Shown here: positions 6-61,146 of the stretch, piece after piece
Layout: every line of letters starts with the position of its first letter
Position numbering within the stretch: position 1 is the first letter of the stretch
NCBI GenBank assembly: GCA_905178155.1
Contig: CAJINV010000001.1
Span: 1,290,606-1,354,605, forward strand
Reading direction: 5' to 3'
DNA length: 64,000 bases
From: Amoebophrya sp. A120
Lineage: Eukaryota; Protista; Dinoflagellata
The notes under the pieces: model-generated
What the model saw: the letters and a program-made list of their open reading frames with translations, nothing else
What the model was told of the DNA's origin: nothing
The model's database searches: none
Program-made: the position numbers and the translations under genes

Positions 6-868
6 GCCGTCTACTACGGGTTCACGCTGCTGAACGTGTTCAGTGTGCTGACGATATCAAATGCAAAAGTGTCTGGGTCTGGAAGATTGCCAGATTTGTC
101 TAGCTTGTCTGGCATGACCAAAAAGTTTGTGATGCGTGTCCAAGAAGAGACCCGTTTGCCTGTCATGCAAAAACGCAGTCTGTCATGCGAAAAACGCAAC
201 ACAAAGAAGCGCAGATGTTTCTGACGCTTGCCTGTGCATTACAGAGCATTTACTATTCCCAACGCAGCATTACAAGTTTCCAGACCCACACATTTTTGCT
301 GTTGATAGACGAATCCCTTCAGCTATTTCATGAACGTGACCTTCCTCCTGTTCGGGTGGATCACTGTTATCTGGGAGGCCAGCGAGGTATTACTGCAGGA
401 TTGGCGACCCCTGCGGGAGTACCAGGCGTGGATTGCAGAATACATGAAATGTTTGGCGATTCCCTGGTGCCTCGGGATCTTCTACCTCTACATCGGCTGT
501 CTGCAGGTCATGCTGCATTCAGTTCTGTCCGTGGAGTCCCTGTTGGGGTTGTACTATCGAAGTGGAACAATGCGAACTACAAAGAGACTGCTTTGCTTCC
601 GTTTCTGGTGTATTTCAATTTCTGAGCGGGAATGCAACTGCTGCATGACAGATTTGGGAGTGTTTCTCACCGGTACCTCCATGATAGAAAAACGCTGGAA
701 GTTCTTTTATACGAAAATGTATGGCTAGGTTTATTTCAAAGACACGATTTTGCTTTTGTTCGTTTGTCCTCCGATACGCACTTTTGTCTGATGGGTAGCT
801 TCAACCTCTGCCTGCACTACGGATACGACATCGAGAAGCCAACGAGAGCGGTGGTATACCATGCATAG
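6..868 (+). CDS. Partial multi-pass membrane protein, TVP15/COPI-associated-like (5' end outside window; 3' end uncertain)
   Basis: Removing the introner at 55-307 plus one GACGA joins AVYYGFTLLNVFSVLT to NPFSYFMNVTFLLFGWITVIWE...GIFYLYIGCL (ORF 330-728); hydrophobic helices. Family call from motif resemblance only. Confidence 0.5.
55..307. mobile_element. Introner family A (TIR core ATGTCTGGGTCTGGAA)
   Basis: TAT..ATA ends, TIR, 5-bp direct repeat GACGA; closely similar to the copy at 18857-19109. Confidence 0.93.
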
Positions 869-2872
869 TGATCAGATGAATCTATTTGTCAGAAAATTTT
901 GGATTGCTTCTAGAGTGAGTGTCAATGTATAAAATCGATGAGGTCCGCCCACGACAAAGCGAGGTCTCAATTTTGCTTCCTGCTCCTCGCGACAAAGCGA
1001 GTCTGCAACGGAAAAACAAAATAACTCCTTTCAGGGCGATTTCGTGCAGCAAGGCGTGGGTATCTAATGCAACTTTGTTGATGTCGGGGCGAGCGCGAGG
1101 AATTATTAGCGAGAACCGCTAGAAGGCTTATGTATATGTTGCAAAGGCCGTGCCATGCTTGTCCTCCCGGCGTGCCGACGAGCCTAATCATGTGGTGTCG
1201 TGTCTAGTGCACGACACGCCGAGAACGCTTTTCACACCACCAACCACCTCGAGAATTTAGTACAAATGAGAATTTTCATCATTTGCATCGCCCGACTTCT
1301 TCATGGTTTTGCGGGGCATAGTAGGTTGGCTGCGAACTAAGGTTCGGGAATTCTCCAATCGAGACTCCGATTCCGGGGGCGTTGAGAGCAGGACCGGCGA
1401 GGGCTTCTGATTCATCTGAGTCCGGGACGAGGCAAGGTCGAAGTTATTTCGATAGGGCAAAACCAACCGATGCAAGAAGTACAACTTCTGCTCTCGCCGG
1501 AAAGAACACTTCATCACCTGCGTACGAGTGGCTTTGTTTGTATTGTGTACCAGAACCTTTCAGACTACTGCCACTGTAGCGCGAAAAATTTTCCAAACTG
1601 TTCTTGTTCTTACCTTTTCCTGTCGCAGAAGAAAGTACGGTTTTGCATTGTTTTTTCCTGTTGACCCAAACCACTTCAGGTTTTTTTACCGTACTAGGTA
1701 GTACCTTGGGTTCAACCATGATGTTGTCAATGTGAAGTAGACTTTCTTTACTCGAGCATGAACTAAATTTGGACCACATGAGGCCCACGATGGGTGCATT
1801 TAAAGATGTTGACAGTGCCAACAGTAGTTTCGTGCCGGTGCAGGTCTAGTCCACCCGGCAGGCGCAGCTACGGTAATTGGTGCTACATTTGTCATCGATA
1901 TTTGTCACGTTTCCGTGGGCAAACATTTATTTGTGCAAATGGATGTGGATTCCAGGACGAACAGGAACACGCATTTTGGAGACGTGCGCGTGCCGGAAAG
2001 AAACCAATCCTAAAATGGTGGGACGTCCGCTAGGATCTCTGCGCCTTCACGATGTTCTTACACAATTCAGACTGATCCCGGTTGTATCTTGAGATGAAAC
2101 TGCATAAACAAAATTCACTCTGACAGATGACGACCTCGAAGCCGGCAATACGTCGTTTTGTGCTAGAGTTGTTGTATCGCCCACTGCAAACAGGATGTTG
2201 AATCTTTTGGATGAGTAGACCGCCACAAATGTCGGTAAAGTCTTTCCGAAGGACTCGAAGACTTGCTGAAGGTCAAGCAGGTGAAGCCTTGCTGCAAGTC
2301 GTGTAGGAGTTATTGCAATACTTAGGGAGCAGTATACTTCAGTAGAATTCGTAGTCGTACAAAGGAACAGAGTTGCTTGTTGTATATCCGCAACTTCTAC
2401 TACGGCCGCGTCGGTACTGTATCTGTATGAGGTTTTGTTGTCGGTTGTGGTCACCTGTGAAAGAAAAGTCTTCCTTCATCATCTGCATTTCGGTCCTGGA
2501 TTTTCGGCGAAAAAAGCTCCTTGTAATTCATATGATCAAAAGTAAGATATTGCTGTATCGCCCTCGATTTCTGTCCGCCGCAAAGGTGTCGAAAGCGTGT
2601 CGCACAACATGCACTCCATTGCATTTAAAATTGAATTTCGCACAGCATCTCGTGTGATGGCAGTATCACTTGATTATTTCTGCATTACCTTTATTACTTT
2701 CACGCATCCTCGCTTTTTTGACCTTTTGTTTTGTTTTTGTTCGTCGGTCTATCTAATACTGGCACAATGCTCATCCTCATAGACAGTCAGCGGTAGCGTT
2801 GTCCGTGAGGGCAAAATTCTTTCCGGAAAATAAAGGAGGAAAAATAGGCTTCAAAGTAACCTGACCAAGACG

Positions 2873-5800
2873 ATGGAGCAGAGCGCCCCACAACTACCGT
2901 GGGACTTCTCTCTGGCCGGCAAGGTGTTGCGCTATGATCTGCACTTCCACAAGATACTGCAACCGGGAACCGCAAATGCGGCTGGGGAAGATTCTTCGCC
3001 ACAGCAAACTACCACAGAGGAAGCGGGCGTTTCGCTAAAGTTATTCGGGGACGTGCCTCGGCCGTATGTGTCCTATCGAAACGAGATCAAAATCCGTATT
3101 GGCAGCGAGAACTGCCAAGCGCTCCCCGGGAACCGGCTCCTGCTCACGGCCGTGCTGCCGCCGCGAATTGCTAGCGACGCAGCTACTTTTTCACCCCCAC
3201 CCTCACCCACCACGAGCGTGGCCTATAATCGGCAGCACCGCTCGGTCGGGAGCGTAGAGATTCTGGATATTTGCTTCGCCACAACGTCCAAAACAAATCA
3301 TACTACTCCAACGACATCAGCTTCAGCATCAGCACCATCGACCGAAGAGAATGCTCCACCTCCAAGGGAAATCCTCGCGAACGCTTCGACATTGCAAAGG
3401 TGGTCCGAGGCCGAAGACGACGGAGCGTTGTTCCGCGTCAGTGGGGTTTTGCAATCTTGCGAAGTGCCGGGTATAATGCGGACTGACAGTGCGATGCTGG
3501 AACGGTCCCCGCACCTGCAGCACGCCCTTCCGCTCGCGGGGGCGACTTCTTCTATAATGGCCGCGCCGGTCGGAATCGAGCCGCACCCGGCTGCACTCTT
3601 GTCGACGTCCTCACCCACTCCATCACCAACGAGCAACAGCAGGAGGAGGAGGAGCCCTTCTGGCGCTGCCAGGGCGGTGGAGACAACTGCAACGACGTCC
3701 TCGCCCCCGGAAAACAATAGAACTGCGGATGATAGTACAACAACGGGGACAATAACGTCCGCTTCCGCACAGGATCTTCATGTCAACGGTCGAGTGGCAG
3801 CAAGATCAATGCCAATCGGGACACAGCGTAGCGCATTGGACGAAGAGGTGGAAGAGGAAATGGAGGAGAACAGCAGCCTCGACGAAAGCACGAACAACTA
3901 CGTCGTCGACGAGACGCACAGCCCGACGAGCCTGGACACCGCCACGCCGCAGCAGCTGCGGCAGCTGTTTCAGGTTATGCAAAACGGCGGGGCCATCTTC
4001 GTGAACGATGCGGGGACGAGGAGCGACTCCGGCTCTGAGGAGACTGAAAACCAAAATGATTCATCGGGTAGTGCTTTCCTGGAGCTGCCCGCGGAGCTTC
4101 CGGTAGACATGCAGGTGCGCGTCTGTGACATCGACAGCTGTCCTGTAGTATCCGCTGCCTATAACATGTCTGGGTCTTGAAGATTGCGAGACTTGTAATG
4201 CTGAACGCCCATAATCCTGAAGTGAACTCTGTCATGCGTGTCTCGGAATGGCGGTAGCGCCCCTCCTCCGTGATGCAAGAAGGCTGTTTCTCGTGTGCGT
4301 AAGCCGCGTATCGCACCACAGAACCGCTCAAAGATTTCTCATGCGTGGCCGCGTAATGTACTGAGTTTGTCAAATTCGCGTATTAGCATGACAACCTTGT
4401 TCGACTGTCCCAGACATCATGTTTGCATCGCATGGCCGTGTTTCGAGGATTTTTCCGAGAGCCTAGAAAAGTGTGTGACGGCGGAGTGCGGCCACGCGTA
4501 CTGCCGCCAGTGTGCCCTGAACGTGTGTCGGATGCGACCGCCCCGGTATCAGGGACGGTGCGCGGTCTGCCGCAAAAAGTTCTCGTTGCGAAACATGTTC
4601 TGCATCCAGGGAGGTGGGGCCGGCACAAGCGGGACCTCAATTGCTGGCGCGGAGTCGTTGGCCTTGGTACGCTGTTTTCCCGGGTTCGGATTAGGAATAA
4701 ATGAGAACAGGAGCAGAAGTCCGCGGGCAGCTGCAGCTGGGCACCAGAACGAAGTTTTGATTTCATCTGGGGGAAGTGGTCCTCCTCCTCGCTCCTTGCG
4801 ATTCACCCGCGAAGACTTTGAGGAAGAGGTGTTTGAGCGGGCCGCCGCAGCACTGGAGCTGTTGCAAAGTCTTGAATACGAAATCGCAAAAGTAGCCCTC
4901 GGACGGACGATCGTGCTATAGTATGTTGTAAGCAATTGCAATAAGAACGAAACAGAAACGCGGATTGAAGGAAGAGCTGCAACTGTTTATCCTAAATTTG
5001 TTTGATCTTACAGAAGTTGTGCTGGTGCGTTTTAATTCAGTACACCATCTTCACGAACACGATCGGTGACCACTTTTGCAACGCATATTGCAGAAGGTGT
5101 GCGAGAGCAAATCGATTTTTCTGGTGAAGAAGCTCCAGCTGGTGCTGGTCCCGGTGCAGCGATTGGTACAACGAGAACTCTGCCGCCGGTACAACCGCCG
5201 GGAACACAACGGGGGCAGAACAACCTCCCCCCCCTGCAGGTAGGATCCTATCTGTTGCCCATGGTGGATGAAACAAGCGTGGATGTTGAGACGCCGTCGA
5301 GAACGAGGCATCGCAACAACTCGCAACGCCCGACGCCATTGCGCATCGAAGAGCGAAGTGTAGTTGCCAACATCTCTGATAGGGACCACGAGCAGGATGA
5401 TAATACTGACACGTCAACACGACCACAACTTGTTCCTAGAGCGCACAGAGTAGCTGTCGGTCAACCTTCATCTCTGCAAGACGATGTGACAAGGGAGCTG
5501 AACCGTATCTACGGCGTGACAGGCGAGCTGCACGAGGGGCAGGACATGATAGACCCCCAGCTGGCGGAGGTGCGGCGACTGCGGGCGGAAATGTTTCAGA
5601 GGTCCCGACGGTTTCAAGCGCGGGTAGAGGAGCAGGAGGCGTGGCAGCAGAGCCGGCCCGACGATGCAGCGATGGAGCGGGCGCAGGCTATCCTGTGCAA
5701 AAGTATCGTACTCGTATAAATGCAAGTCTTGCATTACAAATCTTGTTCCTAAGGCAAATCTGCATCACAAATTTTTTCTCTCATGCTGAGGAAATTTGTA

Positions 5801-6240
5801 ATGCATTTATTTTTATACGAGTGCGATACTTTTGCAATCCATACAGGCCGCCATGGAACGACTCCAGCGAGAACTCGCCAACATGCGTATTACAGTGAAA
5901 AGTGCCCCCCACCCCTAAATTGCAAAAATTTGTGATGCGAAGTTTCCAAATGAAAACTTTTTGTCATGCATGAAAGGAGTACGAATCTTTCTGATGCAGA
6001 ATGTAGGCGTGTATCGCATCGCTTGCATGACAAGCGCCGATCTTGCTGGGGTCTTTTGCAATACAAATTTTTGCTATTCACGATTGAAAACCTGTGATGC
6101 TGATAGATGCAAGAGGGCGAATGTTTCATTTGGAAAGGTTTGCAATACAAATGCTCCGAAGTTCGGGGGTGGGGGCATTTTTCATTGTAATAATGCGGCA
6201 TCTGACGGCGCACGATGACCACGAGACTTCCTCGTCGTGA
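2873..6240 (+). CDS. RING-finger (C3HC4-type) protein, putative E3 ubiquitin ligase, multi-exon
   Basis: ORF 2873-4180 ends DSCPV; next exon CFEDF...CGHAYCRQC...CAVCR completes a RING; ORF 5066 continues in frame across introners 5689 and 5888 to TGA at 6238-6240. The link between 4921 and 5066 is inferred. Confidence 0.72.
4149..4433. mobile_element. Degenerate family A introner interrupting the RING motif
   Basis: ATGTCTGGGTCTTGAAG near the left end, CCCAGACAT near the right end; tips and direct repeat decayed. Confidence 0.65.
5689..5843. mobile_element. Introner family B (TIR core TGCAAAAGTATC)
   Basis: TAT..ATA, direct repeat CAGGC, frame restored. Confidence 0.92.
5888..6192. mobile_element. 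Introner family C (TIR TATTACAGTGAAAA..GCCCCCACCCC)
   Basis: Direct repeat ATGCG, frame restored; opposite orientation to 8594 and 19182. Confidence 0.92.
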
Positions 6241-6849: not shown

Positions 6850-9800
6850 ATGAACATTAAGATGCTGGGCGTCATGTTGCTTCCTTTTTGTGGTGAAGTT
6901 TTTTTCGACCGCCACGGCTTCGCTGTTTCTTCGGCGCTCCTATTCATGGTGTTGTATCTGGCGCCAGGATATGCAAGTGGTAAATATGTCTGGGTCTGGA
7001 AACTTGTGATGCTGTTTGGCGAATCATGTGGACGCCTGCATTTGCAGACAAGCATGACAAGTTTTGGAGTTGCTGTAGTGTTGCCTATCTGCGTGACAAA
7101 CTGCGTTTCTGCAAGACAGAGGAGTGTGGCTTTTGGGTGGCGTGCATGACAAACTTTAGAGCCATGCTGAGTGTGCATGACAAACCTGGCATTCTCCCAG
7201 ACCCAGACATATTTGCATTTGATACACGAGTGGAATGTTTCATCAGGGCTTACCTCGATGGCGGGGATTCGGACTTTATCCTCTGCAAATATTATGTCTG
7301 GGTCTGGAAGATTGAAACTTGTGATGCGCATTTTGGATCAGATAAAAATCTGCCATGTATGATGGACTGCAATATTAGCCTAGTTCTTGTTATCAAAATC
7401 TGAAGTTTCTAATGCGATAGCCATTGAGAAACCATCTCAGATAAACCAGTAATGCGATTGCTTGCATGCCAGAGCTTCTTGGTCATGCAAAAACAGCATG
7501 ACATTTCCAGACGCAGACATATACCTATTTGCAGTGTCGATAGACTTAGAAGTGGGACAGGGCGCGAAGTACTACAAGTTGGATCCCTTAGAGACCTGGC
7601 TGGACCCGAGTGACACCAGTGAGCACACGCTGACCGCCTCGGCCCTGAATAGTGAGTCCTCCACGAGTCCCTCCTCGCCTCTGTATAAGCCACACAGTGG
7701 GCGTGACCTTGCCGGGTATGGGAACAATTGGCGGGGCGCCACCGCACAGCCCAACTGGTGGAAGGTGGAGATCGATCCCGGAAAGCTGCTGGCCACACGC
7801 ATCCGCTTGTTCGCCGGTAAACAGCCGTGGTACACCCTTGAAGACCGCAAAAATCGAATCCAGAACAATTATTTATTGGTTGACGATGTGGAGATTGGAA
7901 GCTTGAAGCCGACCGAATCAGATCGGGTGCTGGGGACGAACCTAAACATGTTGTGGACCTCGGGCAGTGCTCCGCAAGTGGACATACCCCTTTGGCGGCG
8001 GGCTTCGAGATTCGAACTGCGAACGAAAGTCTCCTCCAATAGTACGTTAGGCGGATTCGAGATCTACTACATCCCGGAAATCACCGTTGTGTACCAGCGG
8101 TTGAACTTTAATCCCGTTCGAGGTGACCCCACGAGGTTTTTCAACGGATATCACGTTCCCGGTGATTCGGGTGTGGAAAGGTCGGACATTCTATCAAAAT
8201 GAAAAAACCCCCCTCCCCATACTCAGAGGAGATTTGTGTAAGCATAATTTGTGTATGTGTTTACAAATCACGTTGTCATGCTAGAATGGAAAAGATCAAG
8301 ATGCGGACTGTAGTGCTGGATGGCGCGGGAACGCCTTGCGTCTTCAGCATGACGCGAAGCAACTGGAAGCGGGAAACAGCATCAAAAATTGGCTTCAGAG
8401 GAGGACGCAACTGCGTATCTTGGCCTTCTAGCAATACAAGTCGATTTGTGTACTCAAATACAGCATCACAAATTTCGTTTTCGCTATGGGGAGGGGGAAT
8501 TTTTCTTCACAATACAGGCTCACCGGACCCATCACCGAGTTCCGCTTCGACGTCGAAGCAAACGACCAGGGATTCAAAATTGACGGGATGCAATATTACA
8601 ATGAAAAATTTCCCCACCCCAGAACTTGGCAGCAGTTGTATTGCAAACCTTTCCAATGGAAACACGAAACACTCCCCGTCTTGCATATCTCAGCATCACA
8701 AACGTTCCATGCTGAAGAGCTCAAATTTGTGTCGCAAAGGAGCCCAACAGCAGCCGGATTTGTTTATGTAAAAGACACCTTGCGCACCTAGATTCTGCAG
8801 TAGAAAGGCTCGTAGTCCACCTTTCGTGCATAGATAAAAAGTTCTTCATTTGAAAACCTTATGCATGAGAAACTTGTGCAAATTCCAGCGTGCGGGCATT
8901 TTTCATTGTAGTATGCAAACCACTGCCAACATGCCGATCCTCGGAATTTTGCTCATACGCTCGCCGGACGGAGCCTGCACTTTTCAACAAAGTAATGAGG
9001 TTGTCGTAGCGCAGCTCCGAAGCTTTGTACCGCACCAACGGAGGCTTATCACTTTCAAATTCACGGCCAGTAGTCCCAAGGGAGCGGAGTTAGTCACGAG
9101 CGCACAGTATCAAGTGTAAAAGTGTCTGGGTCTGGAATGTTTCCGGGTTTGTCATGCATATTTTGCATGACCCAGGATGTCTGTAATGCATGACCTAGCA
9201 TCGCAGATTGAGATTTTTAGAGAGCTTCCTGATGCCTAATCCGCATGGCAAATGCCCTCCCTCAATGATGATGATGATGATGATGCGTAGCACAAGCTAG
9301 ACTTCTCTTGCTGGTCATGCAATACAGATTGATCTTCGGACAGCGGGCTTCCAGGACCCGGGGAAAGAGTGGCCGCGGCAGCAGAAGCCAGCAGCAAGGA
9401 GAGAGGAGGCCCCCCTGTCACAGGTAGCGAAGCACAACCTGGAAAGAACAACGCTGCGGTGCATGGAACCCCATGCGGACCAGGAGGAAGAACAGGAGAT
9501 CAACAACCAAAACGAAGCGCCGTGGTTGGTAAAAGAGATGCAAAAAATTCAAGGAATTGACCCAACAATTCCAGAAGAAGAAGCGGCAGACTGGAAGCTA
9601 CCACTGGACAAAGTACTGGGCAGTACGCGACCTACTGGACGGCACTGGGCATCGAGAGTAGTTGGCAGACCGGCAACGAAACAATTTATGGTAGCAGTAG
9701 ACTCACCACGACGGGTGCTGTTGGAGGGTACAGGCAAGAGAGGCCGTCAGGTCGAGCAGAAGACGGAAAATATCCAATTACGATATGAAACTGTACATAG

Positions 9801-12800
9801 TGAGCCCCATGATCATGACGGAGACCAAAAGCAGATAAAACGGCGGAGGATCACGGAAGGTAACGGGATGCAGGTGAACTACGACGCAGATGGAGATGCA
9901 ATTATGCATGAGGTCGACGATGAGAGCAGTGGACCGGTGGAGGACGAAGAGGACGACCTGCTTGCAGATTGCTGATCAAAAAAAAAAGTTATGCTGTGTG
10001 TCTAGAAAGAAAATCAGCCTCAGTGTAGAAACTAATCGTAAGTAGAAGTAGATGAAGAAAAAAAACAGGAAGTTCATAGCCAAAAGGCAGTAAGAGCAAC
10101 GTCTTTGAAGAATGATGAGGGTGCTAGTTGGTAAAGTGCACTGTTACAACATCAGAGCAAAAAAAAATATAAATCACAAAAGGTTGCCGATGCGGACGAG
10201 AAGAAAAAGCCACGAAGGGCTTGCGCCAAGAGCACTAGGTCGCTTCATCGTGCGGTGAGGGCAGGGTGTCGTTGTCGCTCATCGTCGTCGCTGCTCTTCG
10301 GGGGCAGTGGTCGTTGTCGCTCTTCGTCATCGCTGCTCTGGTCGTCCTCGTTTCGAGAGATGGTTGGAGCGCTTCGACGAGAGTTCGGTGAGTTTTGGCT
10401 TGGAGGGGTGCGTCGGCCTTTGCTTCGCCTCTTCGTTGTCTGCTGTCGCCTCTTTCTGTAGCTCTGGTCTTAGGTGGGGTCCCTTCTCCCGGCTCCCTAA
10501 AAAGGGCGTTTGCTGGACTGCTGGAGACCCCAGTCCTGTCGCTCAGCGACACTGTTTCAGGCTGCAGGAGACCCCAGCCATCCCCACAGCTTTTCTATTC
10601 CTTTCGTCTTTGTCTGTTTTCGTGTTTTGCCTGGTTTACCGATGGAATCTTACCGTGCTTTTTGGAATCTTCGGTTTGCGACCAGGACATGCTGCCACTC
10701 TAACGGTTTCACTCGGGCCCGACCCCCGTTAGAGCTTGACCCTTTTTCCCCGAGATCCTACCTGAGGTAGCGGTCGTAAAGGGGATATAGTGGTTGAGGG
10801 GTAAATAAGGTCATGCAATACAGATTTTTTTGGAATCCGAAGTTAGCATCACAAGTTCCAACCTTCCAGACCGAGACATTTTTGCATTTGATACACAGGC
10901 CGACGACTTCTACTGTTTGCGGATCAGTGGCGGAAACGATCGGCGGCAGTACCTGCATTTGCACAAAGCCATCATGTCTGTAAAATACAGTGCCCGGAGT
11001 AGATCACGTCGAGAGCTAAATAATCTGGACGCCCCCGCCCCGCTAGAAGAACGTGAGAGTGATATCATTTGCAAAAACGTCCCCACCCCAGAGTCAAGAT
11101 GGGGATTTTGCAACACAAACCTGAAAGTTTTGGGAGCCACGCATGACAAGTTGCAGGCTGTAGTGTAATGCAGTTTAGCAAGGGAAGCCGCATAACAAAT
11201 CCATCTCCTTATCCTGTTGACAGCATTACAACTTCCAAAACACGATGGGGAATGCCTCTCATGGGGATGCGCATTACAAATGCTCTTGTGCTTGCAGATC
11301 TGCATGACAACTACCAGCCATGCCCCGGCTGACGCCGGGGCGCTAGGCTGTTGTGGCGGGGCAGGACTATTTGCGGATCGGGACGCCGCGCCAGGGCTTT
11401 GGACGCAGCGCGACAGCCCCCCCCCCCAAGGAACATACTGTCGCCGTTTTGCGCCATGCAAACCCGCAGGGTCTCCTGCGCGCTTCCCGCGCCTTCAGGC
11501 GCTATGCGCAGGGAGCAGCTGCAGCGAAGCTTGGGGGCAAAGAGAAGCCGCCTCGCCGTAAGTGCCGAAGCACAAGGGGGACCACGCTGCCCTGTGTTGA
11601 TCACGCTCCCGCCCCCGCCCAATGGCTTCCCGGCCGACGGAACTGCTGGCGCAAGAGGGTATCGCGAGAGGGTGGCGCGAGAGGGTGCGCGAGAGGGTGG
11701 CGCGAGAGGGTGGCGCGAGAGGGTGCGCGAGAGGGTGCGCGAGAGGGTGGCGCGAAAGGGTGGCGCGAGAGGGTGCGGGCCCAAGCGACGCAAAAATCCC
11801 CAGAAGATCGGCCCTGTACCGGGCGGATTCGGGTTGTTTGTACCCTCTCGCAGACCCTCTTTTTTACCTCTCCCGAGAGGTGTTGCTAATAGTCCGGCTA
11901 TACTCGCCGGTAGAGGTCTACAGAGGTGGCCGAGAGGTGGCCAAGAGGGTGCGCGAGAGGTTCGCCCTTATTCGCGCAACCTCTCGGCACCTCTGTCCCC
12001 CTCTCGCTTACCCTCTTGGCACCCTCTCGGCCCCCTCTGGTCCCTATAGGCGCGGCTTTAGGGTGAACGGTTCGGCTCGCTATACCCGCGCACCCTCTCG
12101 GCCACCCTCTCGAATGACCTCCCGCGCCACCTCTCCACCTCTGTCGACCTCTTTTTGACCTCTGTTGACCTCTTTTTTACCTCTCGGCCACCTCCCTTCG
12201 ACCCTCTGTAGACCTCTTTTTTCGCATGAATATAAAAGATAGTAATAGGCTGGGGACGTTTTTACTCAGGATAAGTGAGATGAACCTGGACGACGGCGAC
12301 ACAGAAAGAATATGCATTGCAAATATGTCTGGGTCTGGAAGGATGCGAACTTGTGATGCAGCATGTTGCGGATCGTAGAAAAATCTGTGTTGCGTGACTT
12401 GCGAAAGGTGCCCATATTTGGCCATGCTGAGAGGGCATTTCTCATGCAGAACAGGCATCACCAAGGGGCTGCAGATCCTGTGATGCTAGAACCTGCATTC
12501 CAGGATTGGTGGAGCTTGGATAAACTGCATGACAAATCTCGGGATCTTCCAGACCCAGACATATTTGCATTTGATAAAGAACTCCGCTCGACGACCTTCC
12601 GCTCGACTGGGATCCCGCGTACGACCCCCTACCGGACGAATTGAAGCAGCACGTCCCGAAAGCCACATTGCACGCTATGGAGGAGGAGCGCGCAGCAAAG
12701 GCCGCGGCAAAAATGGTGAAGGGCGTGGACTACAACCAATTCGTGCGGGATGCTGAGCGGGAGCGGATCCGCGCCAAACTGGAGCGAATTGAGCAAAAGC

Positions 12801-43514: not shown

Positions 43515-44239
43515 AGTGGCTGGCGGGGTCGTGGTTCTTGCTGCGGTGCTTTGTGCGAGCAGTGGTCGTCAGCGTGTCTACTGAGAGCGTCGATTGTCAC
43601 AGAATGTCGATATCAATAGAGAAATTGATGTAGCCTGAAATAGCAATGAATGTAGTCTTACGCAAGCCAAATGTTGAATGCGAGAAAGAAACCCTTGTTT
43701 CACCTCTTGATTATATTAAGTATAGCGCAATTTGAAATCACTTTCGATACAGTGTAGCACTGCTACCCACTGCTCTCTTAATGTAAAAAACCAAAAACGC
43801 GAATTTTCATCGGAATAGGGAAAGCCCAGAAACGGAAATTGACAGACGGATGTCGCAAGAGGTGCGTGCACCTGCAAACAGTGTCGTGAGCTTTCGAAAG
43901 ATGATTTTTACGGTGGTGATTTGCACCGAAGTGAACCTGTATGATATGGAATGCGGCTGGGCTCCGTGAGATGCCACGAGCTATTTACTTACTTAGTACA
44001 AATAGGAACAGGAAGTCCTACGAAGCCGACCGGCCAGTTCCGCCGTTGTCTCTTTTTTAGCGGCTGAGTAAGTCAGTGTTCGCCTCTACTGGTTGGTCTC
44101 AGAAGACCACACGAGAGAGAGCACAAATGTAGGGAATGCAAATGGCCGAGCAATGAGGGCGCTCGCTGAGGCGCCACAAAAAGAGTCCTAATGTCTAAGT
44201 ACAGCCAAGCGCTCACGGAGTGCCGTGGCTAACTGAATC

Positions 44240-45870: not shown

Positions 45871-46177
45871 GGCGTAGCTAATTAGTAAGTATCGACCCTC
45901 TCAAGCGTTACGGCTTCTTTTGCGGAGTGGAGAAGACTAAAGCAACGCGTGTGTTGTCAACCGCGATCCCACTTCTCAGAGCCACGCGTTCTTTCCCTAC
46001 TTCGTCTTCGAGGACGTGAGAATAAGGGGAGAGCGATGGATTGCTTACGCCTTCCTTCCACGGGCACAACTCAAGGATCATGCTGAAGCGCATTGCGGTG
46101 TTTATTTGCAAAAGCTGGTGTTTTATTTCAGACTGCAAAAGCCTAAGCCTTTGCCTCCCTGCACAGCAATATCAACC

Positions 46178-49100
46178 ATGACCCGTGTGACTTTCGTGGA
46201 TACGGCGGAGCGCAAGGGTTCCTGCGACAGCACCGGCGCCAAGTCTGTGTGTCGGGACTCCCCTGACACAAGTCCAGCGCGAAACGCGATAAAGCCGTGG
46301 GAGCCAAAGCCCCGTCGCAGCACCACCATACAAATCACGTTCGCTCGAGAAAGGAATGCAAATCCAAGCGTTTACGGCACCGTTCCGGACCTGCCCGCAG
46401 GAAGCACTCGGGAACGTTCCCGAGCCCTCATCGCACAAACGCGACGACGTAAGCTTTGCCTGTTTTTGAGCAAGAAGTAATATACGCCCATACAAAAAAA
46501 TGCACTGGTCTGCGCAGCAGACAAAAATGAAGAATCATAGTTTAATCCACCACCCTACCAGGAGGTGTGCCGCAGGGCAACGGGCTCGCAATCGACTTGA
46601 CCTCGGATGCGACGGAGATGAAGCAGCTGGCGGAAGCGATCGTGGACGACGAAAGGACGGCCCAGATGGCGGCCAGTACCGCCTACCAGGCCATGCACGC
46701 GACGCGGATGTACCACGAGCCCGAGAATCCGCAGATTGTCCGCCCGCTCCTCGGTTCTTCTTGCTACGACAGCTTGCTCTTCGACGCGGATCTACAAGAC
46801 GCGTACCGCTTCGAACAGGCGCTGCGCTCGGTGGGTGCGAATGTACAGGCGAGGGATTGTGTGGGAGGTACTTTTTTTAGGCTGCTTTTCTAAGTAGTTT
46901 TGCTGATGGAGCGACAGCGACTGATAGTACTGATCCTGTTATAATGTAGAAACTGGTTCACTAGTGTCCATTTACATTTTCATGATGTGCCGCGAAAGTA
47001 AGTAGACGCAGGAGGCGAACATGACAAACGATCAGGTCACGCTTTGATCCACCTGTTGGCCCTATGAGAGTGCACAACTCCCCTTCCCCCTCATTTGTAT
47101 AGCATGAACACCAGCAATACAAACATCAGCACGGGTGGAGGCTACGCATGACAAATTTGTGAACCTAGTATAGTTCTGTTTGGGCAGCATCCGGAATTTG
47201 TCATGCAAACAGTGCTACAAGGCAGCGTCTGGATTTGAGATTTTGCATGACAAATGAGGGCGGGACGGGGGAGTTGTGCACTGTTATAGGCCCGTTATGC
47301 GGACCGACCCGGTGTTACGGACAACTGGTTCCTGGACCGGGTGAAAACTCTGCGGAAACGCTATCGTGAGGAAAAATCCCCCCTCCCCATATCGAAACGA
47401 AGTTTCTGATGCTGGATTTCCGTACACAAATCAGATTTGTCTTGCAGTAGAGGACTGCAGGCATATGTCAAGCCTCAGTCGAGAGGTTTTGACGTAGGCG
47501 CCTAGCATGACAAACGTGTATGCTCTAAGCCCAACAGCATCACAAACCGCCCGGAAAATGCGGGGCGCTCTCTGGACTTGCCTTCTTGCAAGACAGACAG
47601 GATTTGAGGTCACAAATGCGCATCACAAATTTTCAGACGGATACGTTTTCAATATGGGGAGGGGGAGTTTTTCCTTACGATAAACGCGGGAGCGACAACC
47701 GCTGCGCGGTAGACTCCTTGGGTGCAGCGCCGCTGCTCGCCGGCTTGGAAATGTATTCGCTGCTGTTCACCCGTGCTTTGCTGCGCACCGAGCTCGGCGA
47801 GACCTGGTGCCGCCAGCACTTGATCGCCTGTCCGCTGTACGCGATGAATAATGGCGAAGAACTACAGGCTGAAAAAGGATCGGGAAATAATGACTCAGCC
47901 TCATCGGCTTTCCCTTCCTTACAGCAGCGTCGGGCCAAGATGCAGCAGCAAACGAAACTGCTGTCCGCGCTGAAGAAGAACTACCTCGCCGCAACAGAAA
48001 AATTACACCCAAGTCGAACTGCAGGGGGAGAAGTAGCACCACAGGTCGTGTCTACTGCATCTACTTCCGGTTGTTCACTAGCTGGTACCACCATTCCGGG
48101 GTTGCTCGAGATGATGCAAAGCGGTGCGGCGGCGCCGATTTTGCGCCAAGTTCCCTTCAACAAGCACACCGGCCAGCTCTCCTGGTTTACCGCGCTTCAC
48201 TCTGCCGCACTGAAGGGGAATGCAAAGGCGGTCGTTTTGTTTCATCTCCTCGGCTTCGACGTAAACTACTCGTGCAGTGCGAACCAACAGGAATTTATGC
48301 CTACGCCGAAAGGTGGTCATGGTCTTGCTGCCGCAGCGGGAGGTTTGTACAATAAGCCACTGCTGAAAGCGTCGCAGAGCGAAGATCTCGACAGCTGCCA
48401 GCAATTTTCCCCGAACGGAAGCACTACGTCCAGCAACTTTTTTGCCAGTGCCGTCCGGCGCGGCAGGTCGGCCTCGCACCAGTCGTCCGCGAGCGGGGTC
48501 AGTATGATCCACAACAAATTGATGCGCCAGCAATTGCAGCTCGGGGGCTTACCGACGTCGAAGAGGGAACAAAACATAGATGAGCAAAATGGTCCGGCAA
48601 ACAACGCGAACAATAGCGGAAGACCCGGGTCTTTGGATACCACCTCCAACTCTTCTTCCGCGAGAAATAACTATCCGAACTCGTCCCGCAGCGTCTGTAG
48701 CACCGGTTTCGGCGCCGGAATTGCGCACCGCCACGAGTCGCCCCTCTGGATCGCCATTCAGTACGGTCGCACGGAAGTGGTGCGGGCGTTGTTGCAGTGC
48801 GGATGCGTGCCGAAGGAAAATTCAAAAGGTATCTATAGGAAGATGCATTGAGCAGTAGAAAATTTTTCTCTGTTGCTACTTGCAGTGAGTCATAAGTTGC
48901 TCGCGTATGAGTCAGTATGTGACTTCTCGTATGTTCACCATTATCATCATCGAGTGTGATGACTACGATCGATGACAGGCGAGAGCCCCCTGCGCGTTGC
49001 CGAGCACCTCGGGTTTTCGGAGATCGCGACGTTGCTGCAGGACTACTACAATTGCCCGGGCGAACTGTACCACGAGACGTACTGTTTACCGACCGCTTCG

Positions 49101-50751
49101 ACGGATGTTTGGCGGCACGCGCTGGACATCAGCTTTGACGCGGTGGACGCGCTGGCCGAGTTTATCGAGCACGGGAAAGTGGTCGTCACCTCCTACGAGC
49201 AGCTGTGCGACTGGTACTACTACCTGGCGCCCGCCAACTGGGAGCGGGTCTTCGCGTTTTGGAGTCTCTACTGCGAACACATGGAAGAGAAAAAGGTGGC
49301 TGGAGATGTTACTGGTACTGGTTCTCCAACCGCATCAAATACTTGGTCCTCCTCCGGTAATATTTCCTCCACGCCACCGTTGCTCCGGAAACCCAGACCC
49401 CGCGTTAGCATGAGCGCCGCGAGATTCTCGGGGAAGAACCACCCGATGCTTCTGTCGCACTACTCCCCAGAAATGGATGTTTCCATCTGGAGCCCGAGTG
49501 GAAATAGTAAAACTAGCGTCGGCGGGATGATGAACGCTAAAAATGGCGAAAATGCAGACCAGAAAGACCACGCTGGTCGAGCATCTTCTGGGACTACTGG
49601 AACAAGCATCAATCAAGATAGTGACCGACTCTCTTTGTCGCCCTCGACGCCGTCGCGAGAAGCCGCCGCCCAGCAGAAGCTGCAGAATTTGCCCACAACA
49701 CCTGAGCAGTTCACTCTCACTTCACCAAACGGTAATCATGTGTCTCTGACGAAGAGTGACGCGGAAGTGCAGATGAAATTGAAAACAAGACGCGAAGTAG
49801 GAGGCAACATTGCGATGAACAGGACCAGTAAAGATCTTCACTACCTCGTCCACCAGCCGCCAATTTTCGAGGAGAAGTGGTTTTGGGAGGAGGAAAAGCA
49901 GGCTTTTCCGGCTTCCTGGTATCAAATGCAAATATCCCTGGATGTCTGGAAGGATGCAACTTGTGATGCTGCGTCTGGATTCTACAAAAATCTGTATTGC
50001 ATGAAAAGCAAAGAAAAGAGGTCCAGTTTTTGCCACGCCGAGAGGGCATTTCTCATGCGGTATGAGCATCAGAAAGCCCTCGCTAAATCTCTGATGCTAG
50101 GGCATGCATCACAGACCTCATGGGTCATGCAAAATCTGCATGACAAACTCCTGCATTCTTCCAGCCCCAGACATTTTTGCAATCCATACCTGGGCGAGAG
50201 TAACGAAAACGGAGGACCCGGTAGAGCCGGAGGAACGGCATGAAGAAGGAGGACAACCACTGCATAATACATCTCCCGCCGAGGACCTGTATCGGGCGAG
50301 TTTCGTCAGTTCCCAGTATGATCGGCCGTCCAATATCGCGATCGACTTTGGCGTATCAAATGCAAAAATGTCTGGGTCTGGAAGAATGCCAGACTTGTCA
50401 TGCAGGTCTTCCATGACCCATGAGGTCTGGTATGTAGGACATAGCATGACAGATTCTGTGAGAGTTCTATGATGCCTATCCTGCATGAGAAACTGCCTCT
50501 CGATTAGGTCAAAAGTGGACAGCTTTTGGTAATGATGCAACACAGATTTTTACATGATTCAGAGTTAGCATGACAACCTGCTTTGTTCCAGACCCAGACG
50601 CATTTGCATTTGATATGGCGGCCGCCCGTCGGACGCTTCGAGGACGGATGATTTTTTTGCAAACGCGTACCTGCACTCCTCAGACTACTTGCTGCCGGGC
50701 CGGAGGAATTCCGAGCCGGACGATTTTCCCCGACCGGTCACTGAAGTTTGA
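46178..50751 (+). CDS. Ankyrin-repeat-like protein, multi-exon
   Basis: Ankyrin-like motifs GHALIHLLA, FTALHSAALKGNAKAV, ESPLWIAIQYGRTEVVRALLQCG, GESPLRVAEHLGFSEIATLL; in frame across four introners. Confidence 0.75.
47063..47288. mobile_element. Introner family G
   Basis: Direct repeat GGCCC. Confidence 0.92.
47362..47682. mobile_element. Introner family D
   Basis: Direct repeat AACGC. Confidence 0.92.
49920..50188. mobile_element. Introner family A
   Basis: Direct repeat CCTGG. Confidence 0.92.
50354..50615. mobile_element. Introner family A (reverse orientation)
   Basis: Direct repeat TGGCG. Confidence 0.92.
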
Positions 50752-51364: not shown

Positions 51365-54300
51365 ATGTCGTATTCAGAAGAAATAGACCCGGCTGGAATA
51401 AACGAAAGTTCTTCTAAATCACCGATCACAGAACTTCAATTTTTTGTCGTTTTGAAGAGCAAGCCTTTGACGAGACCGCAGACCCGGGAACGAAGATTCA
51501 CACACAACGAACCAACTAGAATGAGTTCATCTTTGCATCAGCCTTCCAGTTCCTCCTCCTCCTCAACATCCAGGCTGCCACTTCCTGCGGACGACGAGCA
51601 CGGCAACGAGCGACAAGAAGAACCGCACCAGCATGCAAGGTTCACCTCCCGCTCGCGGCCCGAGCGGCTGCTTGGTGGGGACAACTCTGATGAGGAGGAT
51701 ATTACCATGAATTTTGGGATGAACAGAAACACGCTGCTCGCGGGAGCTGCACCTGGTGGACCGCAATCCTCGGCCAGCAGCGTCGTTGGGAAGGACAGCT
51801 ACCTGAACGACGAAGACGAGGAGGAGGAGGACTTTGACGCGACAGACTGGAACAATTACGCCTTTCAAGAGCAGCAGCAGCAAATTATGTGGTCCTCTTC
51901 TGAGGACTCGGACGATCTGGAAAGTTACGATAGCGACGCCTCCCTGGAGTTTGCGCTTCTCGACAAGCAAAAATCGTTTATCAGCAAGCCCGCGGAATAC
52001 ATCGCGAATTACGTCGTCGACCTCCCCGGAGGGACGTCGGCGCGGCCCGTTAAGCTGAAGATGAAAAAAAACATGCGCTGGGTCAAAACGAAGCCGCACA
52101 AGTGCTGCCCCAGGGTGGTCATCGGGTATGTTTTGGGGGGTGTTTCGATGGTGTTGTCCGCGTATTTTGGCCTGTATCTGGACCGGCTGTTCTTTCTCGA
52201 CGGGGACGTTTATTCGGAGCAGTTTTTCGGAGAAGCGGTTGTAGAACTAGTACCTGAAGAGATCACGATGACCTCCACAAAATTTGCTAGTACAGAGAGC
52301 AGGGATAGAACCATTTCAAGTTCTGGTGCGCTTCTGGGCAGCAACATTAATTTGAGCAATGAACGCAGAAACGAGAGGACCGAAGAACCGCGTGCGCAGG
52401 CGTTTCCTGGCCATGGTCTTGTGCGGAGAACTGCAGAGAAACTGTCCGACCTTCTGTCATTCGTGTGGAAGAAAACTTTCGGTGGGAACAAGATGAGTAC
52501 AACGACCGTCGTGCTACAACGTGCAGCATCACCCAAGGAGAAGAAGATTCGCTTTCTTCTCCGCAGCTTCACCGTGAAAACGCCCGCGCGCACGAAGCGC
52601 GATTGGCTCGCCCAACTGGGAATGGACAAGGTCAAGGAGCTTCTGCTTTCAAAGGGCCCACTGGGAATACTACGACGGAGTACAACTATTCCGATGTTGC
52701 CCGTCACGACGTCGCTCCTGCCCAGGTCGGATTTTTTCGTACGGACCGCTACTGAAGAGCAACAGCGCCGTGATTTTTACAGCGAGATAGAAAATGTTGA
52801 ACAACGTCGCGGGCAAATAATAAAACAAGCGGAAATGTCGGTGGTAAAAGATGCAGAGCCGATTGCTGGTGCACAGCAACAAGACCAACATCTTCGCACT
52901 CCTTCGAAAAAACCTCCACGACGGTATCATGCAAACAATCCAAACCAAGACCAACCAATGGATGAGTTTCCTGACCTGCAGCTCCCAGCGCGCAGCCGCG
53001 AACGGCGTGGGACGGGGACGACCATGACTGTAGCTGTATCAAATGCAAAAATGTCTGGGTCTGGAAGGTCACAACTTGTGATGTTGTCTGTGGATTCTAA
53101 AAAAATTTGTATTGCATGACCTGCAAGAGGTGTCGGGTTTGTCCTACGCGGAGAGGGCATTTCTCATGCGGTAGAGGTATCACAAAGCCCTCTAAAAATC
53201 TGTGATGCTACGGCATGTATTACAGACATCATGGCTCATGGAAAATATGCATGACAAATCTCCCAATCTTCCAGACCTAGATGTTTTTGCATTTGATAAC
53301 CTGCAGGTGCTGCCAACTACCGCGAGTCCAGCGCGGCGTCGAGTGCGACCAGCGTGGTTCGTATGAAATGCAAAAATGTCTGGGTCTGGAAACTTGTGAT
53401 GCAAGTCAGTCAATAACAAACGCACTCTAATGCGCCACCAAGCATGACAAGTTGCTTCGTGCTTCTGTGCTGCGTATTCCGCATGAGAAACTGCGTTTTT
53501 GCATCACAGGCGAGAGAGGCAGCTATTTGTGGCCACGCAATATAGAACTAAGGACCATGCCAGATCAGCATGACAAATCTCGCAATCTTTCAGACCCAGA
53601 CATATTTGCATTTGATAGCTCGTCGAGGCAGGTGGAGCGCGCCAACGACGGCCAGGGTGATGGTACCACAACAACAACCCGCGGGGGCACCCGCGTGGCG
53701 CCATTTGGACCGCACGCGCTCGCCGGCTTTGCCGAGAAGAAGTCTGCTACCCCCGCCGGATTCGCTTGGGAACAGGAATACCAGTACCAACAACACGACC
53801 GGGGTCGCGCCTTACCTTCCCCGCAGAGCAACTGTGCTTGATGTTGTCCCTCCGCGAAGAACCAGTGATCCAGGCGACAATCTTGATTCGGGCGGTGTTG
53901 GCAAGAATCCAGCTTCAGCTGCTCCAGTGTCAAATTCTATTCCCCGTGCAGCAGGTGGCCGTCCGTACTCGTCGGTCGAACAGCCTCTCTTTCAGTTCAC
54001 TGTGCAGTGGCACTACCTGCAATCTCCGGTTGAAGACGAAGACGAGGAAGAGAGCAGTGCAAGAAGTGCCGTCTTCACTTCGGAGCAAGCAGCATCAAGG
54101 GAAGAGGAACAACAAACGGCTCATCTGGACCGCGACGCAGGGTCAGCGTCAAACAGCGAGTCGTCAGCATCCACTTCAGCGCCCCCCGCGGCACGGGTGT
54201 TCTCCTTCGAGTTGGGGAGCCGGATCGAGAAGCTGCTCGTCGAAAGACTGGAAGAGAGCGCGGAGGAAGTTGTGAGTGGTACAAACAAGGCGCAGCCGGT

Positions 54301-58276: not shown

Positions 58277-61146
58277 ATGGCGATCCCTGCCCTGCTCGAG
58301 GTTGAGATTCTCGAGGGGTCGGGGTTTAAACACGAGGGCTCGCACATGGTGGAGGCCAGAGTCGATGGCTTTCCGCCGCAGAGGACCGAGTGGGCGACGG
58401 ACGATGATTACGCGTTCTTTTCCGGCGGAAGAACCGGAAAACGGTTTCTCAGCAGCGGTCCCCATGGCTGCATGCAGTTCAACAACGTCGTGTATCTGCA
58501 ACAGATGGACCGGTTTGTCTACTTCACTTTGATTCACAAACGCATGTTTTCCGACCACAAGCGGTGTGGCGAGGCGTTCGTGAAGCTAGCCGCGCCCGTC
58601 GAGAAGAGCGTGTCGACGGCGAAGCTTTTCACCGTCGCGTTGGAGCACAAAATGCGGTTCGCTGGGTCGCTACAGGTGCGGATTTCCTACAGCTACCTCT
58701 CGCGGAACGGGCAGGCGCCGCGGATCGAGCGCCCGACAGGAGGAGCAGCGTATGCGAGTGCAAGAACAACTACTACATCCAGAGTCGGAGCATCTACATC
58801 AATGGCAGCCCCGCCGCGCGCTGGCACAACTTATGCGCCTCGTGCGGACGGGAGGGTTCTCTCCGAGGAGGAGGCGACCCGGCGGGAAATCGAGAAGGCT
58901 TTGCGCGCGGACGGCGGAGATTTGAGCGCGCAGGCAGCGATGCTGAACCAGTTTGAGCAGCGGAAGCAAGCCTCCTCGCCCTCCGCCTCCTACCATGCCT
59001 CCAGTCCCAGCAGTCATGGTAGGGGCTCGCCGGCGTCCAGCCCCGGAGGCAGTTCGCCCGGCACCACCAGCCCGGCGATGAGTCCGCAAATGGGAACAAA
59101 TGTCGAACAAAGAGCCAGGCCACGAGGGCCACCACCGCGTGATGTAGCGGCAAGTGGTCCTAAGAGCACCTCGTCCTCATCCCGCGTGCACTATGTCCAC
59201 GAGCCCCCGCCAACGCCACCGGACAGTCCCTTTCGCGGTCCGGGCTTCAGCAGCGCTGGTAGCTCGCCCGTACCGCCGTCGGCTGGTGGTCGTGTGCAAC
59301 CGAATGGAAGTAGCCGTCATGATCAGCAGTCCTCTTCGACTTCCGGCCGGCGAGGAGAACCGCCGCCGAGCAACTATGGCAGCAGCAGTACTAGCAACGC
59401 GCACACGAATTATAGTACAACTAGTAGACCACAAGGCGCCACGAGTACAACTTCTAGTGCGGCAGCAGCTTCTAAAGGCAGACCACCCAACACTGCATCA
59501 GCAAGCGCCCCCGCGGGTGCGACGAGGCGCGCGACGGACCCAAGACCCGACCCCCGCCCGAAGAGCACCGGTGGTGGCCCTACAAGTGCCTCGGCGGGTG
59601 CGAAGTCAAATGATAACCATCAATCGCAGCCGCCGCCGAAGTATGAATTGCAAAAGCATCCGCATCGTACTCAGTAAAGATCGCATGACAAATTGGCTCA
59701 GTATGAGAAACGAAATTTGTCACGCGAACTCACCTCAAGAAGGCGATCGAAATTTGTAAATGCATGATTGTGATTTTTACGCGATACTTTTGCACAGGAT
59801 ACGAAGAAGAAAGCCGCGCCGCCACCGCCGGAGCCGGAGATTGACCCGGAGGAAGCGATATGCACTCCGCAAATATTTATAATGTCGGGGTTTGGAAAGT
59901 TCGACTTCGAACTTGTGATGCTGGTCTTACTTTCCTGCGAAATCTGTATTGCATAACAAAAGCCGCAGCCTCTTTTGTCATGCAAAAACGCACTTTCTGT
60001 TTGTGTTTCTCATGCGAGCTGCGTATGCGAAAGCGTTCTCGAGGACGAAAGTGGTCATGCTTGGCTTCATTCGGAAGCGTTTCCACCATCGTTCACATTT
60101 TAGCATCACAAGTATTTCCAGACCGCCCAGATTGATGATTTGCCCTGCATAAGCGAAGCGAGAAAAAGAGCTGGAGGAGAAGAGGAAGGAGATCAAAATG
60201 CAAGCCAGGGCGAGCCAGCTGGCGAAAGTGCGGGCCATGAGCGACACCTCGTCTCCGTCGCCCGCGACGAAGTCACCGTCACCAGTGTCCCCGGTGCAGC
60301 GGCGGGTCATCGTAGAGAAGGTGCGCAGCCCGGACACAGTGGGGGCCGCGTCATCATCGGTGACCGCAAGCCCGTCCGGGAAAGACGTAAGTAGTCCCGA
60401 CGTGTCCGCATCTGGCAGTCCCAGCGCTGCGGCCGGGGGTGCGACGACGCCGGCGAAGGCCGCGTCGAGTATTGATCCGAATATGAAAGCGAGCAGTGCT
60501 GGGGTGAACAAGAAAAACAGCGAAGCTGCTGGTGGTGATGGAGCGAAAGAACCGCAACAACAGCCCGCACCGGACGACGAAACTGCAACAGGAACAACAC
60601 ATCAATTTAGGTCGGCCGCTTCGAAACAAGCCAGCGCCCCCGCCACGGCTTCATCATCATCTGGGCTACCAAGAAGTAAAGCGTCAGCTGCGTCCGCCAC
60701 CACCCCTCCTCCCGCAGTGGTTTCAACGGCACCAGCAACAACTGGTGCTCGCGATCCGTTTGACTTTGAGGTGCCGAGCGAGAAGGGCGAGCGCTTGCGC
60801 AAATTCCTCCATTATCCACGAAAAGAACGTTGTTAGTGTAAATTTGTGATTCGCAACATGCAAGATGATTGCGTCCGTCATGCTTGGCATCCATTGTAGG
60901 GTCCATCAAAGGGCGTTTTCACGACGTACTATCTGCGCATGACAGGTTTTTGCTGTCATGCCAGACAGATATGCTGTTCCTCCAAAAAAGTTACAATGTT
61001 TTTTTTTCTTGGATATCCATACGAAGAGGAACAGTACGAGCACTCGTGGTCCTGTTGCAGGACCTGCTGCCAACAATCCCTACAACGACGCAGTTTACGG
61101 ACACGGGCAGATGATGGCCCCGAAGACAGAACGCTTTATGGAATAG
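58277..61146 (+). CDS. C2-domain protein with S/P-rich tail (3' end uncertain)
   Basis: LLEVEILEGSGFK..FTLIHKRMFSDHKRCGEAFVKL..AGSLQVRISY is C2-like; in frame across introners 59642, 59859 and 60813. Confidence 0.7.
59642..59801. mobile_element. Introner family B
   Basis: Direct repeat CGAAG. Confidence 0.9.
59859..60151. mobile_element. Diverged A-like introner
   Basis: TATGCA..TGCATA tips, direct repeat AGCGA. Confidence 0.85.
60813..61015. mobile_element. Introner family K (TIR TATCCA.GAAAA.AAC.TTGT)
   Basis: Direct repeat TCCAT; joins KFLH-TKRNS. Confidence 0.88.

Follow-up and report, generated by a model that had tools for sequence, protein, structure and literature searches.

Nine tested introner elements of Amoebophrya sp. 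A120 are removed precisely from RNA, likely by cuts at fixed distances from the element ends

Amoebophrya sp. A120 carries about 29,850 copies of introner elements, which lack GT-AG borders, are supported by RNA and contain no transposase (Farhat et al. 2021, PMC7789003). Their inverted repeats are described as starting with TAT, followed by seven looser letters and at least three A, and their flanking direct repeats as 3–5 bp long. The available text of that account reports no splicing signature, says that the position of the intron border "remains unknown" and leaves open the mode of splicing of over 60% of the introns; it also reports most spliceosome proteins and U2, U4, U5 and U6 in A120. 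Comparable introns are known elsewhere. Nonconventional introns of Euglena follow the code N3-CDG...CHG-N5-6|R, and an origin from miniature inverted-repeat transposable elements (MITEs) is proposed for them in the available text of Nomura et al. 2025 (PMC12501133). For non-canonical, MITE-derived introns of Fritillaria borealis, spliceosomal removal has been shown (PMC13326754, in the text available). Here we analyse a window of 64,000 nucleotides of A120 (GenBank assembly GCA_905178155.1, contig CAJINV010000001.1, positions 1,290,606 to 1,354,605), in which 48 elements with TAT...ATA ends occur, and propose where the cuts that remove them fall.

The DNA of the window is eukaryotic. Its genes run in one direction, along the + strand, on which all features below are given, and they are interrupted both by ordinary GTA...CAG introns and by TAT...ATA elements. 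A strict scan for TAT...ATA tips, a perfect 5-bp direct repeat and a spacing of 60–1500 bp yielded 42 pairs, 30 of them with an inverted-repeat score of at least 10, against 0–1 such pairs per shuffle in 20 shuffled controls. Together with relaxed scans and curation this gave 48 elements between 55 and 61015. The preliminary description, made from the letters of the window, had proposed about 45 elements in roughly 11 families with TAT/ATA ends and an arbitrary 5-bp duplication, which agrees with our census and with the 11 multi-copy families found. Usual lengths are 150–330 bp; four elements are longer (954–4545 bp) because foreign DNA was inserted inside them. The 5-bp repeat has at most two mismatches in 46 of 48 elements: 36 copies are perfect, 7 have one mismatch and 3 have two, the other 2 (4149–4434 and 21126–21333) being decayed. 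Three tips deviate (TAC at 36864, GTA at 8913, ATG at 4434). Further inward, AAA occupies positions 11–13 on both ends of 35/48 window elements and 287/376 pooled elements, and is shifted or shorter in the other families.

These elements are the published introner elements of A120, with every class feature that we tested present. The earlier description had stated correctly that Amoebophrya introners were known and their mechanism open; the TAT and 5-bp rule is itself already in print (PMC7789003, available text). Each of three exon queries matched one database protein, 100% identical and labelled Amoebophrya sp. A120. With terminal inverted repeats, a locus-specific target duplication and no coding capacity, as in MITEs, the elements are non-autonomous inverted-repeat transposons. 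No transposase or integrase open reading frame (ORF) was found in the 4 long window elements or in 7 long candidates from other loci, and 14 ORFs of the inserts had no Pfam match. Searches of Rfam and of viral contigs gave 0 matches each.

RNA lacks all nine elements of MCM2 (approximately 24035–34877), a gene that also contains ordinary GTA...CAG introns. RNA-type contigs from four runs (X3–X6; two samples of one study) match the window with 100% likeness and span 25960–34260; their RNA nature was guessed, and accepted because ordinary introns are missing from them. In 4/4 runs, 9/9 elements are skipped by exactly their length plus five, and the same contigs skip two GT-AG introns of MCM2. 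Removal of element 1 (26264–30808; 4545 bp, family-2 ends, two foreign inserts) takes place at its true ends, with 4550 letters skipped. The others are element 2 (family 0, 30856–31111), element 3 (family 1, 31237–31390), element 4 (family 5, 31769–32081), element 5 (family 9, 32193–32343, directly before Walker B), element 6 (family 1, 32405–32558), element 7 (family 0, 32624–32885), element 8 (family-0-like, 33069–33345) and element 9 (family 0, 33875–34137). When MCM2 is joined along the RNA joints, an open frame of 464 codons runs through Walker A, Walker B and the arginine finger, whereas each element would bring an in-frame stop if retained. MCM2 is no pseudogene, because all nine elements are skipped with one repeat copy in these contigs. 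The nine elements, the three restored junctions TTGKG|ASG, GICL|IDEFD and HEAM|EQQ, and precise removal had all been anticipated from the letters; two outcomes named in advance as refutations, an MCM2 pseudogene and use of nearby GT-AG sites, are rejected. Contigs drop rare variants, which puts minor registers and removal efficiency out of their reach, and two raw RNA runs (X10, X11) have no depth on MCM2 exons. These data support precise removal at the RNA level.

Diverged repeats reveal where the cut falls. We define register k as the number of letters of the upstream repeat copy that are kept in the product. Identical repeats yield the same product in six registers, which is why the border had not been placed; where the copies differ, the product shows which copy's letters stay. 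RNA joints restrict the register to 4–5 at 31237 (silent mismatch at position 4; joint 31235>31395, with 1 letter of play), 2–5 at 32405 (mismatches at positions 1 and 2) and 3–6 at 33069 (mismatch at position 3). Database gene models restrict it to 3–4 at 4149 (P0001), 4 only at 21126 (P0002), 3–5 at 6970 (P0003; mismatch at position 3) and 4–7 at 8192 (P0003; mismatches at positions 3 and 4). Register 4 alone fits all seven junctions, and a shared register arose in 0.6% of simulated uniform cuts, a value that rises to about 1% when protein class is used to score 4149. At 4149 the RING C-x2-C needs register ≤4 and is lost at register 5. P0002 starts the 21126 intron with TT, cutting before T-TAT where there is no GT, which is not the choice of a GT-seeking predictor, and P0003 bypasses an AG at register 3 of 8192. 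Eleven further elements are cleanly removed in database gene models. We therefore hold it highly probable that the intron reads exon|N-TAT...ATA-NNNN|exon, and the removal cuts likely fall at fixed distances from the element ends, one letter before TAT and four after ATA.

The direct repeat is likely the footprint of insertion and not a signal for removal. In the gene models it is dispensable at 4149, where 0/5 letters match, and at 21126, where 1/5 match: both elements are removed at the same distance from their ends. Extra letters between ATA and the repeat point the same way. Among 57 elements, three letters had been added in 3 true cases and one or two never (about 1.2 chance matches over all offsets), the pattern to be expected of a cut placed by distance from the end together with purging of frameshifts. 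The preliminary description had left a choice between guidance by the element ends, which these results support, and guidance by the direct repeat, which they do not support.

A wider sample of elements shows what the families share. A search of metagenome contigs for a single end pattern yielded 150 overlapping loci (694 kb), in which a caller that ignores the direct repeat, and that favours good ends without specially favouring TAT tips or AAA at 11–13, found 449 distinct elements, against 3 in shuffled loci. Their repeats were perfect in 317, with one mismatch in 80 and two in 23. A codon model oriented 351 of the 449; the 98 without a strand were dropped, as were 23 oriented elements with at least three repeat mismatches, and a few evident mis-calls stay in the two-mismatch set. 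The 372 short pooled elements fall into the 11 multi-copy families, every one with a window member, and orientation within families is near-even (79/76, 29/28, 13/14 and so on). Direct-repeat letters follow background composition, with no target preference at single positions. Copies diverge from their family consensus at the tips and at AAA 11–13 in 0–3% of cases, against 5–39% elsewhere. All families have an inner motif in common, GCA(A/T)(G/C/T)ACAA, present in 352/372 elements, with 891 matches in 91 kb of elements against 1 in the 44.7 kb of window outside them. Its matches peak 30–49 letters from each end in mirror arrangement. Predicted folds of 44 elements give a mean pair probability of 0.6–0.8 over most end positions. 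Positions 4–7 of the ends draw on a small set of letters common to several families (CAAA, GGAT, GCAT, CCTG, GAAT), and the two ends of one copy are often unlike there (complementary in 37–70%), as if ends had been exchanged.

Several other candidate signals were tried and rejected. Length plus five is divisible by three in 29/48 window elements and in 153/449 from the loci. Position-5 mismatches are absent (0) from window elements with 1–2 mismatches and make up 14/121 mismatches in the pool; 19 such cases in the loci lie in lineage-specific proteins, where homology gave no decision. At register 4, 106/213 insertions with a clear frame (window and loci) fall between codons, an excess that does not prove the register, as a symmetric target model alone gives 41%. 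A stop-codon test of the register was informative in 4/65 cases only, the orientation of informative elements within families was too weak, and no drift of diverged repeats to GT or AG was seen in 41 elements.

At register 4, the left end of each element resembles the host donor site. All 18 ordinary window introns examined begin with GTA, with the fourth letter free, and end in CAG, with 3' ends that are A-rich rather than pyrimidine-rich; no branch motif at a fixed distance was seen in these 18. The left TAT takes positions +2 to +4 and so matches the GTA donor. Changes of the tips differ between sides: among 353 oriented elements, 9 of 10 changes of the left, donor-side tip hit the third letter (TAC, TAG), while on the right, acceptor side the third letter accounts for 2/10 and the outer two letters for 8/10 (Fisher p=0.005, or 0.009 and 0.03 when strands are called more strictly). 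On the donor side 331/331 elements keep the outer T; on the acceptor side 7/331 have another letter there. Such an asymmetry is not predicted by a purely symmetric process, whether it acts on DNA or on a hairpin. The intron has +1 G in 116/376 elements and AG at register 4 in 29/376, with +2 T and +3 A kept, so neither the GT/GC donor nor the AG acceptor of canonical U2 introns is present as a rule. Even when any product-neutral register is allowed, GT-AG can be read in 2/48 window elements (15330, 32624) and GC-AG in 3/48 (5689, 21977, 47063). The earlier description had rightly named 15330 and 5689 as exceptions but missed the other three. Published tables agree at the second letter: the top non-canonical pairs all begin N-T in A120 and T-T in A25 (9/9 each), which fits +2 T.

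We lean towards a relaxed U2-type spliceosome that measures from the element ends and makes the fixed N-TAT...ATA-N4 cuts; granted register 4, the spliceosome is probably the remover. A transposase, not seen here, would insert the element in either orientation and duplicate 5 bp of any sequence. In the transcript, the first four letters of the upstream repeat would stay in the exon, with the fifth as intron +1, and the intron would close with four letters of the downstream repeat, so that the element and five letters would go missing, as they do from RNA for nine elements. Since 1+4 equals the 5-bp duplication, removal would leave no scar at any target. The left TAT may serve as +2 to +4 of a GTA(C/T/G/A) donor in which G+1 is no longer needed. 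The 3' cut may be measured from the right end, TTT-N7-ATA, paired with TAT-N7-AAA in a stem, without an AG. A U2-type spliceosome would thus have given up both G+1 and AG and would place the 3' cut by distance. The code is the same at both ends, so an element would be spliced whichever way round it lies. Three parts of this scheme are inferred: the transposase, the catalytic step and the branch point.

Other accounts of the missing letters fare less well. Excision from DNA at some life stage, as for the internal eliminated sequences of ciliates, is unlikely: terminal ends with a 5-bp duplication are typical of DNA transposons, but genomic contigs of run X1 (which may have supplied the window itself; rare variants are dropped from contigs) pass unbranched through the filled sites at an even depth of 40–46, with no sign of a second exon copy. 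The RNA-type runs also hold low-depth contigs from inside the 4.5-kb element, as for an ordinary intron, and tip tolerance follows the direction of transcription. Taken together with the variant in which an intact MCM2 copy lies elsewhere, we give this account very little credence. Still less goes to a join guided by the direct repeat through template switching, microhomology or recombination, in the cell or as an artefact of reverse transcription. Exactly one repeat copy is lost, and repeats are perfect in 317/449 locus elements; hairpins with flanking repeats favour template switching. Yet the 31237 join uses a 1-letter and not a 3-letter shared stretch in 4/4 runs, gene models remove elements in which no more than one of the five repeat letters matches, and MCM2 is translatable only if all nine elements are removed in the cell. 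If the ends guide removal, the cut could still lie flush with TAT (register 5) or vary within the repeat, as all three RNA junctions allow. The available text of PMC7789003 calls splice sites variable relative to the hairpin, and AG stands at register 5 in two diverged loci. We consider this improbable, since register 5 would destroy the RING cysteine at 4149, conflicts with models P0001 and P0002, and creates an in-frame stop in one locus element.

A more serious competitor keeps the fixed cuts and replaces the machine. A dedicated endonuclease and ligase outside the spliceosome could bind the paired ends or the inner motif and cut at the base of the stem, offset by 1 and 4 letters. Such enzymes would need neither G+1 nor AG, and the conserved end positions are mirror-symmetric; the inner motif is enriched inside elements of all families, though it may be merely a transposase site. 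The Euglena authors, in the available text, argue for non-spliceosomal factors (PMC12501133), whereas the U2 spliceosome of Fritillaria can handle such ends (PMC13326754, available text). Against the enzymes, the cut falls exactly where TAT matches the host GTA donor, tip tolerance is donor-like, and the decayed elements look hybrid, 4149 starting with GT and 21126 ending in AG. We therefore place an endonuclease and ligase well behind the spliceosome, as a possibility to be taken seriously. Slightly less likely again is its fuller form, a second, non-spliceosomal RNA excision machine that would read the transposon ends (TAT-N7-AAA...TTT-N7-ATA plus the inner motif) and cut 1 and 4 letters outside them. 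Were that true, removal would be scarless wherever and whichever way round an element is inserted, and over lengths up to at least 4.5 kb, making the element a target-independent, portable intron.

Several observations weigh against fixed cuts made by a relaxed spliceosome. RNA removal rests on four runs of a single study. Raw runs X10 and X11 and contigs of X3 contain abundant RNA from other loci in which an element end is kept (302 and 82 reads for one; matches to the window at 32533–32563, 19080–19111 and 17709–17747), and hence some copies stay in RNA. Only three of the RNA junctions are informative, and these do not separate register 4 from 5; the step to register 4 comes from two gene models of unseen basis, both at decayed elements. 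Model P0003 makes an early exit from element 9108, after 217 letters (GT..AT or TA..TA), and continues into the insert; this exit, at 9323/9324, lies inside the element just before the 1.5-kb insert and four letters behind a right-end-like internal ATG, and may be chance or a model error. In 41 elements, divergence of the repeats has brought no drift towards +1 G or towards an AG at register 4. Tip changes are few, and the contrast of the outer two letters alone gives p=0.04, falling to 0.2; the strand calls behind these counts come from a codon model that left 98/449 elements unassigned. No branch point or strand-specific internal signal was found in the pooled elements, where no strand-specific inner k-mer survived multiple testing. 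The predicted fold of the RNA-confirmed element 31237 has unpaired tips, its stem beginning only at the A-run. U1 was not detected in A120, which also favours an enzyme outside the spliceosome, and related Amoebophrya strains with ordinary introns have U1 (PMC7789003, available text, for the former; the latter likewise from partial text). Finally, the published top pairs end mostly in AG or AC, where register 4 predicts GG or GC as commonest; given this mismatch, the table reflects aligner choice and is weak support.

The remaining elements are spread over the whole window. In the RING-finger gene, P0001 removes the decayed, family-0-like element 4149–4434 as well as 5689–5843 (family 1) and 5888–6192 (family 8). 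P0003 covers 6970–7224 and 7277–7542 (both family 0), 8192–8514 (family 2) and 8594–8913 (family 8, right tip GTA), all removed, and, as its exception, 9108–10893 (family 0). P0002 removes 18857–19109 (family 0), 19182–19485 (family 8), 20658–20818 (family 1), the decayed 21126–21333, 21977–22160 (family-6-like ends, silent mismatch at position 1) and 22279–22432 (family 1). A younger family-2 element, 21340–21665, sits across the 3' junction of the 21126 element, and the stretch 21126–21665 would hold either a 1-letter exon (21338) or a composite intron TTAT..ATAG. Strict-scan elements of family 0 lie at 55–307 (perfect repeat), 12311–12576, 15330–15591 (GT-AG readable at register 3; that of 32624 is at register 1), 17699–17960, 41547–41808, 49920–50188, 50354–50615 and 59859–60151. 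The same scan found 13424–13703 and 17328–17606 (family 4), 15020–15284 (family 10), 42276–42510 (family 7), 42584–42904 and 47362–47682 (family 2), 47063–47288 (family 6), 59642–59801 (family 1) and 60813–61015 (family 3). Relaxed scans added 53037–53298 and 53362–53617 (family 0, each with a mismatch at position 2). Also present are two elements with family-6-like ends, 15634–15868 (mismatch at position 1) and the diverged 16677–16833 (mismatches at positions 1 and 4). The DRC4/GAS8 gene (approximately 36761–39360; Pfam GAS) has one element only, 36864–37035 (family 1, left tip TAC, relaxed scan), and seven ordinary introns, which were used for the donor consensus; its join, in which the frame slips at the element, was set aside.

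Long elements have themselves received insertions. Inserts at 9331–10808, 14066–14686, 26376–29106 and 29137–30759 have direct-repeat flanks of 11–18 bp, one after a poly-A run, and look like retroposed DNA that landed inside elements; they have no Pfam match. The first is the 1.5-kb insert of 9108–10893, with 18-bp flanks, and the poly-A-ended second, with 11-bp flanks, lies in 13787–14740 (family 0). The insert at 26376 begins with ten letters ending in TCAAG, the same five letters with which the dinoflagellate spliced leader ends. Element 11063–12273 (family 4, with a foreign insert) has removal supported by ORF restoration only; it contains tandem GAGAGGGTGGCGC-type repeats in inverted arrangement (11600–12230), and a 90% identical stretch lies inside another long element, at locus L020. 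Outside the elements, an AT-rich region at 61130–63600 has many copies of CTTCAGAAG and CTTCTGAAG and a repeated 40-letter unit (61080, 61780, 62970), and is perhaps another repeat family. A GC-rich island (65–68%) lies between genes at 44000–45900.

The elements themselves were already known; the cut rule is new, and stands on seven junctions (three from RNA, four from gene models) and a modest asymmetry statistic. It was not found in the literature searched, in which supplementary figures S19–S25 of PMC7789003 are represented by their legends. A fixed 1-and-4 rule would reduce an "unprecedented variety of splice sites" to one code plus arbitrary target letters. It would also explain how elements can land anywhere in essential genes, correct gene models wherever repeats have diverged, and predict the letter kept in each read and the place of the lariat branch. 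If the spliceosome does make these cuts, it works without G+1 and AG, which bears on the limits that splice-site chemistry sets on intron ends; if it does not, a new RNA machine is at work.

Comparisons with known systems hold for the available text of the cited papers. Relative to the published account of A120 (PMC7789003), the border is here placed at N-TAT...ATA-N4, the repeat proves dispensable in gene models, and an inner motif common to all families is noted. Like Euglena nonconventional introns (PMC12501133), the elements have paired motifs near both ends, fixed and unequal cuts outside them, and no GT-AG. Unlike those, they use TAT/ATA with AAA/TTT in place of CAG/CTG and spacers of 1 and 4 in place of N3 and N5-6, follow no purine rule after the 3' cut, and carry the donor-like +2 T and +3 A; the CDG/CHG motif with its spacers does not appear in the end logos here. 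Non-canonical U2 introns of Fritillaria borealis (PMC13326754, PMC11282704) are likewise MITE-derived, lack GT-AG and stand beside ordinary introns, but their ends are biased to AG-AC and AG-AT and U1 is kept, whereas in A120 the first and last letters are free and U1 is undetected. Ginger2/TDD transposons share the 5-bp duplication, seen in TDD-4/5 (PMC2836005), and Ginger-like elements have been noted in A120 (likewise from partial text). Ginger1 ends in TGT, in contrast to TAT here, and neither TGT ends nor an integrase-type transposase was found in or near the elements. Similar in origin are the introners of algae and dinoflagellates with terminal inverted repeats and target-site duplications (Gozashti et al. 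2022, 2025; PMC9860276, PMC12130899), which also derive from DNA transposons, lose one duplication copy on removal and have splice sites that overlap the duplication. Those introners carry or co-opt GY and AG and need suitable targets, whereas A120 elements carry a partial donor only and accept any target in both orientations.

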